A DNA stretch of 64,000 bases from Eledone cirrhosa (GCA_964016885.1 OZ024751.1:39432001-39496000); one strand, 5' to 3'. Numbered from the stretch's first letter, positions 2,904 to 58,441 are shown. The notes: generated from the sequence alone by a model not told the origin. Numbers and translations: made by a program.

Positions 2904-3082
2904 TAGGAAAAAGTATGACCTCGATGGCAGAGCTCAAGCAGTTTCGATGGCTATTTCGTCGAAACGGCTTGAGCTCTGCCGTCGGGGTCATACTTTTTCC
3001 TATTTCCCACTCTACTACCCTAAATATTGAGTACTCTGGTGCGTTATGGTCCATCTGGTTCCTTACCACAATTCCTTTGTTA
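2904..3082 (+). mobile_element. Fold-back Penelope-like non-autonomous element, family H1 (about 46-bp arms + tail), contains 3' half of a hammerhead
   Basis: Arms 2904-2949 / 2957-3002; GAAA-CGGC..GCCG-TC motif; tail 3003-3082; TA tracts both sides; relatives at 21017, 24088, 33177, 40735, 57909, 58601. Confidence 0.7.
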
Positions 3083-3107
3083 TATTATATATATATATAT
3101 ATATATA

Positions 3108-3495
3108 CTAGCCAAATTATCCGCGCCTTGCTGCGTTTCACACATTTTTTTTTTTTTTTTAGAAAATGATGTTTGATTTTAAATCAGTGATATAATTTAT
3201 GGAGAAAAACTCCATTATGGTATCTTAATATTGAAATTTGCTGAAGTTTTGTGAATAGGCATCATATCTTGTCATTTAACTATGGTTTAAATTTCATATA
3301 AATCGAAGGGAAACATTTTCAGCAGGGGTTTGTGTCCCCAGGAAACCCTTTGATTAAAATTAAATATACTTATCCAAGTACCCTGGGCAACGTAGTTTCA
3401 GAATATATATGGTTATGGGGGTCTATCTCCAAAATCATAGGAGGAGTTTGTGAACAAACAAACAGACAAACAAACAGACAGGGACTACAACTTTA
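3108..3495 (-). mobile_element. Non-autonomous Helitron-like element (Lep1-like layout)
   Basis: CTAG terminus at 3108-3111 next to a short GC-rich degenerate palindrome; (ACAA/ACAG)n near the other end; TA context. Confidence 0.55.
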
Positions 3496-5469
3496 TATAT
3501 ATATATATATATTTATATATATATATATATATATATATATATATATATATATATATATATATATATATATATATATATATATATATATGTATAAAGAGAG
3601 ACAGAGAGAAAGCGAGAGAGTCTGCAGTGCTGAGACTGATGAGATCAAAAATTATGGCAGTACTCAATGGCAGCAAGAGGAGAGATGTTGTAGAGGATCT
3701 AGACTGAGTTACATTAGTGTTAGTTGGAAGACAGAGAGAAAAGCAGACACATAGAAATACATGCCAACACACACAGGCATACACACACACACACATGCAG
3801 ACACACAAATCAGCATAGTATAATAAATATATATATATATATAAAAATCTAGACTTTTAGTTTCATTACTGTTGAAAGAGACACACACCTGGCAAACATA
3901 TATATATACATGCCAACACAAATGGACATAAACACTAGCATACACACACAGACACACACAAGTACATACACATGCACACATGTACACACAAGTACATACA
4001 CACTGACTGGCCAACATAAGATGTATACAGAGTTACTTAGACTTTTAGAAACATGTCTGTAAAATGGCAGACACATATAAAGACATGCAGAAACATGCTT
4101 CAACACACAAGCACTGACAGATCAACATAGCACACACACACATGTGTGTATATATATATATATATATATATATATGTATCTGCTTAATGTAACATTAACC
4201 TGCATGCATTCATCTGCTAAACAAAACACACACAAAAATAAACAAAAGGCCCAGCAATTCAAATGTAAAATGGTGTAGAAACCAACAAAACACACATCTC
4301 TTTCTCCCTCTCTCTTTTCCACTCTCCACTCTCTCTCCTCTCTCCCTCCCCTTTTCGTTCTCTAAGACATCTACAGATTCATAGCAACAACTATAGAAAT
4401 TTCTTTATAAAAACCATGATGTGCGAAGACAATGGCACCAACAATGGCACCGACTGGAATATGGCAACACCAAAACCAAAACCAAAACACAGACTTAGAC
4501 AAAAATGCCACAGTCATCATGGCAGAATCCCAGCATTGTGAAGACTACTATCGCTAAAAAGTTGATACCAAACTGAAACGATTTGGACTTCTTTTGAGAA
4601 ATCATGGATAAAATGTAGACGAAGACTTTTGCTTAAGAGAAAACCAAAAACAAAAACAAAATAAAACAAAACAAAACAAAAAAGTTTGTATCACTCTTTC
4701 TCTCCCAATCTCTCACTCTCTTTCGAAGAATGGTTCTGATGTGTGAAAGAGAGTTTGCGAAAGGAAAAAAGAATGAGTGAATGGTAATTTCACAGTCTCT
4801 TGCACATGTGAGGTGATGAAAGAGATGCTTAAAGAAAGCCGAAGAAAAGTGGTGCAGATAACAGAAGCGAACTCTTAGAATCTTAGAACTGGTCTTTATT
4901 GCCAGCCTACCTTAAACTAAGCTAATTCAGATTGGTCTTTGACCCTTTAGAAATGAGAACGATGTAAAGAAGATGGTCGTAAAAGATGTAAAATAGCCAA
5001 AGAATAAATAGTACCTATATATATATATATATATGCATATATATATAAATATATATATATATATACACACACACACAAATATATATGTATATATATTATA
5101 TATATATATATATATATATATAATCACACACACATACACACGTATGTGTGTATATCTGTTGCAACTTCTCTACAGAACATTTCTTTAGATTCCTTGTGAA
5201 AAACTCTGCTTTGATAAGACATATGTAATAGAAAGGAAATAATAATAATAATAATGATAATGATAATGATAACAACAATAATAATCGTCATCAAAAAATC
5301 TGTTAGTGAAAGAAACGAGTATTGAACCAGGGGGAAATGTGGGGAGATAAAAAGACATCAATAAAGAATTTAGCAGGTTTCACTTCTGTTTTGAAGTGAG
5401 AGAGTGGGGAAGACAGACTGAGAGGAAGAGAGAGAGAGAGAGAGTGAAGATAGATATAGATTAAATAAC

Positions 5470-56691: not shown

Positions 56692-56836
56692 ATTGACACT
56701 GGCTCAAGATGTTTGACTGTGTCTAATGACACTGGCTCAAGATGTTTGATGTGTCCAATGACATTGGCTTAAGATGTTTGACTGTGTCTAATGACACAGG
56801 CTCAAGATGTTTGACTGTGTGTCCAATGGCTCAAGA
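56692..56836. repeat. ~30-bp tandem repeat (tgacactggctcaagatgtttgactgtgtctaa-like)
   Basis: About five degenerate units seen directly. Confidence 0.8.
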
Positions 56837-58104
56837 AGCCATATGGTGAGATCAAACCCAGGATTTAATGATTACAAAGTGAAATTCTTAATCAATTGAG
56901 TATGTTGTGTCAACACTATGGTCACCTAATAGATGAGAGAATCACATGACAAAGACACAAGTATTTGTTAGTTGATTACTTTCTTCTAGGTCACACTAAT
57001 TAATAAAACAGGAGAATAGAAAGAAGTAGACACAAAGAGAACTGTTTTGATTTGGATCAAGTTCTAGACAAACAACCTTTCTCCATGAATTGGAAAAATG
57101 TCTTTGAAAGACTTAACAGAAGAAAAAAAATTCTTAAAGATCTTTTCTGAATTTCATAATGATTTGACCTTTCATTGAGTTGTTTATTTTAAAGGTGAGC
57201 AAACAAATACTTTAAATAAATTCATAAATAAATGAATGAATAATATTAAAAAATAAATAAAATTAAATTCAAAAATCAACTTAAAATGAAAACAAAATAT
57301 TTGTTTAATAACTTTAATAGACGTAGTGTAAAATTTAATGGATCAGTTAAAATTAGCAACAAGGAGATGGACATCTGTTTATAGATGACTGAAGAAGATA
57401 AGATTCTTTTTCATAACTTGTCTTTTGTAGCGGAAAACCTCTGCTACATAATTCTTTCTGAAGAATGGCTGCTACTGCTAGCAGTGAACAGCAAATAAAT
57501 GGCTTTATATTGAAATAGAAAACTTTCCATCTTTCCAATACTGAACTATCAAAATAAGCGAATAAATATTTACTAAGAATATTCTATTTCATCAAAGTCT
57601 TTCTTCCCCACAACCACCCCCAATCATTTGCTTCCCAAAATTATTATGTACGTTAGATTACCTGAAAATTAGAATATCTTAAAAACATAACTGGAGCAAT
57701 GATTTTTTAAAAAATGTCAATGCATCATTGATGTTTAGCCTCGAGTCAGTGTTCTTTGAGTAGACTGACTAATAAATGGCTTTCCAGTCATAACCATCCT
57801 TCCTGTCCTCTTTTCAGACATAACACACACACACACATATATATATATATATATATATATATATATATATATATATATACATATATATATATATATATAT
57901 ATATATATAAATCAAGATAGATACAGTAAGAAACTGGTTAGACCGTTACCCACCAGCATACTCAATACCTGGGGTAGTAGAGTATGGTTATATGAAAGAG
58001 TCAGGATTCCGAAGGCTGAGCTCTTGCCTTTTCAACAGCTTATTTCCAGACTAAATATATATATATATATATATATATATATATATATATATATATATAT
58101 ATAT

Positions 58105-58441
58105 ATAATATAAGATCAAAAGATGGTTGAAGGAGTTCCATGTATTTTATTATGCGCATTTCAAAAACAAACATCATCATGCAATAATATTTGTGTTTTC
58201 ATCAGATAAAACAGGAGAACATGATATGAAGGCTAAAAAACACTTGTGGATAGTGCAGTTTTAAATCAACATAACATGCATGATGATGTTTGTTTTTGAA
58301 ATGCGCATAATAAAATATATGGAACTCCTTTAACCATCTTTTGATCTTATATTATGCATACTCCAGTCCCACAAACTGTAGAGTGCTTCTTATCCGATAT
58401 CTGCATTGCTTTATTGTACTACAATAAAACTCACCTCCTAC
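58105..58441. mobile_element. Fold-back Penelope-like element with 79-bp arms + tail
   Basis: Arms 58105-58183 / 58277-58355; tail 58356-58441 with ACTCC..AGAGTGCTT; TA tracts both sides. Confidence 0.8.
58145..58211 (-). ncRNA. Type I hammerhead ribozyme on the COG1-sense strand
   Basis: Minus strand: UUUUAU-CUGAUGA-AAACACAAAUAUUAUUGCAUGAUGAUGUUUGUUUUU-GAAA-UGCGCA-UA-AUAAAA. Confidence 0.8.

Follow-up and report, generated by a model that had tools for sequence, protein, structure and literature searches.

Penelope-like elements (PLEs) that encode an endonuclease leave a characteristic insertion pattern, consisting of a hammerhead motif, an inverted truncated arm and a one-sided extension at a (TA)n target (as set out in the consulted parts of PMC8557442 and PMC4209133). 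In the anole element Poseidon, the protein cuts and extends both DNA strands, and reverse transcription (RT) is initiated internally at two positions, one on either side of the tail (PMC11167929, consulted in part). Earlier work has established the Hydra clade, the tails and hammerheads of PLEs, and internal initiation; how PLEs choose their internal start sites, and how one-sided tails and inverted arms originate, are open questions with in vitro data for one element. Here, we describe a 64,000-nucleotide stretch of Eledone cirrhosa DNA (GCA_964016885.1 OZ024751.1:39432001-39496000; hereafter the window, with positions counted from its first letter), which is animal DNA rich in AT and dense in microsatellites (simple-repeat masking covers about 16 kb) and contains a small bulged hairpin in the tails of short insertions. 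The hairpin is genuine, and constitutes a conserved cis-element within an established class of retroelements: its sequence is conserved, its paired positions covary, it is doubled in full-length elements, and element copies end a few nucleotides ahead of it. We propose that it belongs to the tails of truncated PLEs and probably serves as an RNA signal, bound by the reverse transcriptase–endonuclease protein to start RT a few bases to its 5' side.

The hairpin is built as RYTC, an inner helix, a 2-nt 3' bulge, GAGY and NCT. In its simplest form, ACTC-N3..25-GAGTGCT, it occurs six times in the unmasked window, whereas 100 dinucleotide shuffles yield a mean of 0.31 and a maximum of 2. A descriptor of the structure, which demands an outer stem with two or more pairs inside it, a 2-nt 3' bulge and GAGY-VCT, matches 13 times, against a mean of 0.99 and a maximum of 4 in 100 shuffles; since this descriptor was tuned partly on the window sequences themselves, the independent, protein-selected loci described below carry more weight. 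The 13 matches fall into eight families, H1 (five copies), H2 (two copies) and six single elements, and all sit within short insertions running into (TA)n, the first (TA)4 run lying 35–78 nt downstream in 13 of 13 cases, as it does for 8.9% of background positions. The H2-type elements (19808 and 42227) have the form GCTC..GAGC-CCT and an inner region of greater length, 38 nt in the copy at 19808, and in the 49355 copy the partner of GAGT is ATTC, with a U-G wobble. All motifs listed in a preliminary description of this DNA were found again, with the same positions and strands. The description called the host families unrelated; they share no BLAST similarity (E<1e-4), but they do share an origin as PLE ends. 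Three loose matches (23684-23702, 35219-35234 and 59546-59563) fail the structural descriptor and were excluded.

The window insertions show both the inverted truncated arm and the one-sided tail. In three fold-backs, listed as inverted arms in the table, the arms carry minimal cores of type I hammerheads, stems I and II included; the hammerhead is only partial in H2 and in the element at 49.4 kb. Hairpin and hammerhead 3' half share a strand, the hairpin being 50–60 nt past the predicted cut in the three fold-backs and 38, 51 and 25 nt past it in H2, the 49.4-kb element and H1, respectively. As judged from sequence, the hammerhead cores and inverted arms mark the hairpin carriers as truncated ends of PLEs. 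The idea that the window carries the Hydra motif in reverse was also considered and rejected, because the window motif lies on the strand of the hammerhead 3' half. In the seven arm-bearing copies measured, arm identity ends 4, 2, 4, 5, 5, 2 and 2 nt ahead of the motif, and the opposite arm turns into (TA)n at its stop, 2–5 nt before the hairpin start, as the preliminary description had noted for the hairpin elements. The Hydra clade is present in this genome as a decayed remnant, which is unlinked to a hairpin. Insertion into (TA)n is a trait common to Neptune and Naiad elements, and therefore is not diagnostic for the Hydra clade.

The comparison loci were chosen by a protein feature alone, the back-translated C-terminal Hydra motif. 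The set comprises 128 loci (L134-L261), namely 121 of an estimated 260 or so metagenome loci and seven from genome bins; a profile of homologues matches 112 of them (E<1e-5). Seven contain full-length open reading frames (ORFs) of 699–717 aa with RWK/RWR, DKT/S, YRDD, CxCX5C (in six of the seven) and, at the C terminus, a GIY-YIG-like domain, and the six motif-bearing full-length ORFs compared pairwise are 45–77% identical. A downstream hammerhead that passed checking is present in 56 of the 128 loci, with at least 110 nt beyond it in 45. The motif is found 20–90 nt after the predicted cut in 22 of these 45 testable loci (14 of 20 pseudo-long terminal repeat (pLTR) clusters), compared with 0/45 on the reverse strand, 0.27% of shuffles and 6/1061 ORF-side windows. 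Many of the 23 testable loci that are motif-negative stop at a TA-rich point ahead of the motif, and one has a point change. In these loci the hairpin has a G-C form, GCTC/GAGC-ACT, of which we infer the window form, ACTC/GAGT-GCT, to be a lineage variant.

In genome bin G001, the pattern matches 30 times, against twice for a reversed control, and among the hammerhead families of this bin it follows those linked to Hydra. Extended copies of two Neptune-type hammerhead families (L292/L309 and L365), a small sample from one host, are without the motif. These two families share another tail word, roughly CGTATCC..TGGATCC (L292:93, L309:3741, L365), possibly a start signal of their own. Both G001 and G002 are filed as bacteria, yet are rich in animal-type repeat DNA with PLEs. 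Hydra flags on L293 (1933), L298 and L309 were false, the ORFs of the latter two being of Neptune type. The Hydra protein pattern gave no match in viral contigs, where the loci returned by hammerhead-only or motif-only patterns (13, at least 120 and at least 120) were treated as chance; the descriptor background in viral contigs (L014-L133) is seven matches in 448 kb.

The hairpin can also be seen by eye in Hydra consensi published for coral and sea cucumber and, in altered form, for copepod (PMC8557442 File S7, consulted in part). The tails at the 3' ends of Hydra-2_Amil and Hydra-2_Ajap contain GCTC..GAGC-ACT, and Hydra-1_Ajap carries it at nucleotide 3; in Hydra-1_Crog the 5' start bears GCCC..GGGC-ACT and the tail a mismatched copy, and in the octopus element Hydra-1_Obim a degenerate ACTC..GGGC-GCTT lies some 50 nt ahead of the ATG. 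Hydra-1_Amil and Hydra-1_Obim are tailless and end at a TA point. Among the matches viewed in Naiad and Chlamys consensi (GAGTGC, 12 of 42; GAGCACT, 18 of 22; GAGTACT, 12 of 12), there is no regular motif. Weak GCTC..GAGY-RCT look-alikes lacking the 2-nt bulge occur in a Chem Naiad 3' region (the entry before Naiad-3_Chem) and at the 5' start of Naiad_Ptep (PMC8557442 supplement, consulted in part).

Because MAFFT misaligned the variable-loop motif, we counted covariation by anchoring on the motif and in an equal-length subset of nine sequences. Assuming a 2-nt bulge, the first inner position is paired in 30 of 31 unique tail instances (C-G 13, U-A 13, U-G 4), as compared with 1, 0, 4 and 18 when bulges of 0, 1, 3 and 4 nt are assumed for the same instances, and 14 instances form at least three inner pairs (shuffle mean 1.5). 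The mutual information for inner pairs 1–3 is 0.65, 0.42 and 0.46 (P <0.0002, 0.007 and 0.02, uncorrected for relatedness); for pair 1 the null value is 0.07, none of 5000 shuffles reaches the observed value, and shifted partners yield 0.12 and 0.02. In the nine gap-free instances, pairing extends to 93.8% of cells, with two-sided changes in six pairs, whereas slid controls pair in at most 46% of cells, and the covariation score is reached in 0/500 shuffles. Covariation in a larger alignment, the lack of which the preliminary description had named as refuting its reading, is present, and the stronger signal is in the inner helix; within the window, outer-stem covariation rests on one family, H2. 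In the inner helix, G-U is counted 12 times and A-C once, an excess that favors the sense strand as the structured strand.

The same data bear on whether the motif acts as DNA, in which case the GIY-YIG endonuclease would recognize it, perhaps through the near-palindrome GAG-YR-CT(Y), and cut just upstream, making the copy ends sites of cleavage or resolution. The GAGY-NCT half is invariant in sequence, and in the consulted parts of two studies the Drosophila virilis Penelope tail is required for endonuclease recognition of plasmids (PMC11167929) and tails are ascribed to endonuclease resolution (PMC8557442). However, the inner-helix covariation, the fixed 2-nt bulge and the excess of G-U over A-C require a single-stranded sense structure, and the (TA)n target does not contain the motif. 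We consider a DNA motif unlikely; single-stranded DNA could also form the hairpin. The 3' half, GAG-YR-CT(C/T), is nearly self-complementary in both the Hydra loci and the window motifs, and could pair between two RNAs.

By a strict pattern, two motifs are present upstream of the ATG in four of the seven full-length ORFs (L154, L170, L184 and L204), and L261 also has two. Hairpin A is at −103 to −134 and hairpin B at −41 to −60 from the ATG, in the 5' untranslated region (UTR); their spacing is 57–65 nt in 7/8 loci and 83 nt in one with an internal (TA)n. A (TA)n run separates hairpins A and B in the 5' UTR of L204, and the L261 element starts straight at hairpin A after (TA)n, as does the Hydra-1_Ajap consensus. 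The doubling and the tie to the Hydra clade go beyond the preliminary description.

We compared 59 hammerhead-carrying 3' ends with every locus by alignment, taking a homologue as usable at 90% or more. An end is testable if a relative extends further into the motif, which holds for 16: eleven stop 0–6 nt before hairpin A, four 3–6 nt before hairpin B and one at 20 nt. Tailless copies end before A, and tailed copies before B. Under a generous null, in which any TA/AT site in the region qualifies, such a position has a chance of 0.23.

The H1 family shows the same behavior in restriction-site-associated DNA (RAD) sequencing, where about 21,000 reads align to H1 in each of two runs. At loose end 40794, 5 nt before ACTC, 2903 and 2427 reads depart into (AT)n, making this the largest H1 loose end in one run and the second largest in the other; a further 1790 and 2114 reads depart near the tail end. 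H1 variants at a frequency of 5% or more are located in the loop, in the bulge and past NCT, apart from a single stem change in which a U-G pair is retained, and 1 of 19 positions in the stem and NCT is variable, compared with 34 of 132 overall (P 0.02). The preliminary description had proposed a conserved RNA stem that positions RT priming or ribonucleoprotein (RNP) recognition. Both the covariation and the fixed spacing, seen in 15 of the 16 testable Hydra-clade ends as well as in H1, support it; by this reading, the stem would act as RNA and position RT. Because the hairpin lies a few bases past the points at which copies end, it probably tells RT where to start.

Alternatively, the hairpin could be a control or packaging element of the 5' UTR (a translation operator, RNP assembly site or internal promoter), with ends clustering ahead of it as AT-rich upstream bases anneal to (TA)n. 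This would fit the location of motif B, 41–60 nt before the ATG, and the composition of positions −10 to −4 before the motif, which are mostly A/T. Yet a position 0–6 nt before a motif is occupied by 15/16 ends but by no more than about 23% of the TA/AT sites in the region, and the rule covers A as well as B, which makes this explanation improbable. A relic or mimic of a tRNA D-arm (GCTC..GAGC with A-C-T after it), such as a tRNA-derived short interspersed element or a Pol III A box could supply, appears highly unlikely and is, as an origin, largely refuted: although the pattern also catches tRNA-like heads in G001 (4 of 30 matches), the D-loop signature A..GG..A (A14, G18-G19, A21) is found in 0/43 Hydra instances, 42 of which have C or T at the start; no tRNA is detected in the window by ARAGORN; and the best 150 of 286 Rfam matches there, mostly miRNA models on simple repeats or fold-backs, all score below the gathering score of their own family. 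Chance or shared ancestry of a purely neutral kind is refuted by the window enrichment, the protein-selected loci, the bulge register and the copy ends, and is hard to credit for a motif that, short and weakly folding as it is, occurs 13 times against one expected, covaries, and is kept where flanks are unalignable and proteins are about 50% identical.

Several observations weigh against an RNA start signal of Hydra-clade type. First, no PLE ORF is attached to any window hairpin (by Pfam, in 148 of 223 short ORFs and the ORF of a long interspersed nuclear element (LINE), and by tblastn), and for this reason we infer the clade of the window hairpins; H1 also lacks the 5' half of the hammerhead core, and the ACTC form is not enriched in G001, the one other host DNA checked (15 matches versus 35 in the control). 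Second, the window tails measure about 60–105 nt from the motif start and exceed the A-to-B spacing of 57–65 nt, hairpin B is not visible in them, and by the strict pattern L180 and L190 have one motif and L183, with 88 nt upstream, has none before the ATG. Third, folding of the window hairpins is weak, with z below −2 in 1/8 hairpins and another register or fold favored in 3/8; weak folding of the hairpin alone would be compatible with stabilization by a protein. The outer stem is nearly invariant in the metagenome set (GCTC/GAGC in 43/44), so that its pairing rests on few changes. Finally, 24 of the 59 ends have no usable homologue, two are duplicates, and 17 of 33 unique rows have no longer relative reaching the motif; the 16 testable ends lack independence, since the families they come from are related, and the nominal P of 3e-9 for their clustering is therefore overstated; and the RAD reads are a biased sample that may include duplicates.

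If the hairpin is an RNA docking site that sets each RT start just upstream, the two classes of end could arise as follows. From a tandem transcript, the element protein, probably as a dimer, would cut both strands of (TA)n DNA; priming would take place at the site before A for one DNA end and at the one before B for the second, assisted by TA microhomology; and the two cDNAs would join head to head after early truncation. The expected product is a fold-back in which one arm ends before A, with the one-sided tail containing A and falling short of B. We tentatively extend this to a two-hairpin ruler in Hydra-clade PLEs, a possibility to which we give somewhat less than even weight: each half of the reverse transcriptase–endonuclease dimer would dock on one bulged hairpin and prime one end of the double-strand break 0–6 nt upstream, so that hairpin spacing alone would set both the fold-back arm and the tail, including its length; as a portable signal, the hairpin would let tiny non-coding elements, H1 for example, hijack a telomerase-related reverse transcriptase. 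A short, covarying, doubled hairpin that predicts both classes of end offers a concrete, mutable signal, and it is also a marker of ORF-less PLE debris, which is dense here (13 in 64 kb).

Table. Hairpins, PLE arms and related features of the window
Feature	Position	Strand	Remarks
Hairpin ACTC / TT bulge / GAGT-GCT	16536..16563	-	Tail; arm end 4 nt before, predicted hammerhead cut 60 nt before
Inverted pLTR arms	16573..16763	.	Minimal hammerhead core from 16662 (+), outer arm
Bulged hairpin, tail	53595..53617	-	Arm end 2 nt before, predicted cut 55 nt before
Inverted pLTR arms	53625..53969	.	Hammerhead core 53873-53913 (+)
Inverted pLTR arms	58113..58347	.	Hammerhead core 58159-58205 (-)
Bulged hairpin, tail	58360..58387	+	Arm end 4 nt before, predicted cut 50 nt before
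Tail of 58360 hairpin	to about 58441, then (TA)n	+	Contains the 58360 hairpin
Bulged hairpin	18756..18778	-	Short 5'-truncated insertion flanked by TA runs
Bulged hairpin, 6 inner pairs	32836..32863	+	Tail ends about 32941
Hairpin variant ATTC/GAGT-GCT	49357..49379	-	51 nt past 3' half of Hydra-like hammerhead
H1 hairpin	3009..3035	+	Element 2906-3080, inverted arm present
H1 hairpin	21063..21089	-	Element 21018-21175; internal rearrangement ahead of motif
H1 hairpin	24135..24161	-	Element about 24090-24210
H1 hairpin	40800..40826	+	Element 40740-40869; family-wide loose end 40794
H1 hairpin	58647..58673	-	Element 58602-58787, inverted arm present
H2 hairpin GCTC/GAGC-CCT	19808..19856	+	Element 19495-19891
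H2 hairpin	42227..42274	+	Element 42015-42309; degenerate Hydra-like hammerhead 38 nt upstream
H2 tail-only fragment	58465..58546	-	Hairpin 5' strand mutated
Decayed Hydra-clade PLE ORF remnant	11358..11528	+	hmmsearch independent E 9e-7; between (TA)n runs

Other PLE-like features of the window include a hammerhead-bearing end at 12520-12750 (+; core 12637-12673) with good stems I and II, which is tailless and ends in (TA)n, and a 250-nt inverted pair at 46329-46837 with a hammerhead-like core in which GAAG replaces GAAA; no tail hairpin was seen in the latter, and its right end adjoins another repeat. An H1-related subfamily (33179-33316 and 57926-58044) is represented by a perfect tailless fold-back that encloses a TA run and by a decayed copy with a tail, and further hammerhead-like cores lie at 63185-63208 and 63967-63994 (both +). 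The window also contains two nearly identical RTE-type LINEs (1-2514, +; 37468-40742, −), with an ORF of 988 aa comprising an endonuclease, a reverse transcriptase and a PHD-like finger, and a 41-nt unit repeated in tandem at about 59900-61400, the units being 94–98% identical.

A full-text literature search, whose reach ended at subscription papers, Repbase/Dfam notes and figure images, found no published description of the hairpin, and the terms 'tail' and 'stem' are absent from the consulted part of bioRxiv 10.64898/2026.07.22.740005. The Hydra clade (Craig et al. 2021, PMC8557442) resembles the window elements in its (TA)n targets, pLTR hammerhead, inverted 5'-truncated arm and one-sided tail, and the hairpin is visible in four of its six new consensi (one with changes) and degenerate in the octopus one. 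The consulted parts of that account describe neither a hairpin in the tail or 5' UTR nor a link between a hairpin and copy ends; moreover, the window form has A-U for G-C at the stem base, and the window tails are longer than the 30–40 bp quoted there. Poseidon PAc of Anolis (Frangieh et al. 2024, PMC11167929) is similar in its two tail-bracketing RT starts, in the cutting and extension of both strands, in its requirement for a downstream RNA region and in its predicted dimer. However, it belongs to another clade and starts in an AC-rich stem loop inside the ORF; its 361-nt template is by eye without RCTC..GAGY-NCT, and the consulted parts of the study define no conserved, doubled recognition hairpin. 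The hammerheads in the window arms are of the kind known from PLEs, whereas the hairpin is separate from them, 25–70 nt downstream of the predicted cut and without a catalytic core. Small bulged stems that are bound by protein fix the engagement of a reverse transcriptase on its template in other systems, namely hepadnavirus epsilon and the telomerase template boundary element. We propose no sequence relation of the hairpin to either, and here priming would be from target DNA, with the hairpin 3' of the start. It may represent a minimal template tag for a reverse transcriptase that is sister to telomerase.

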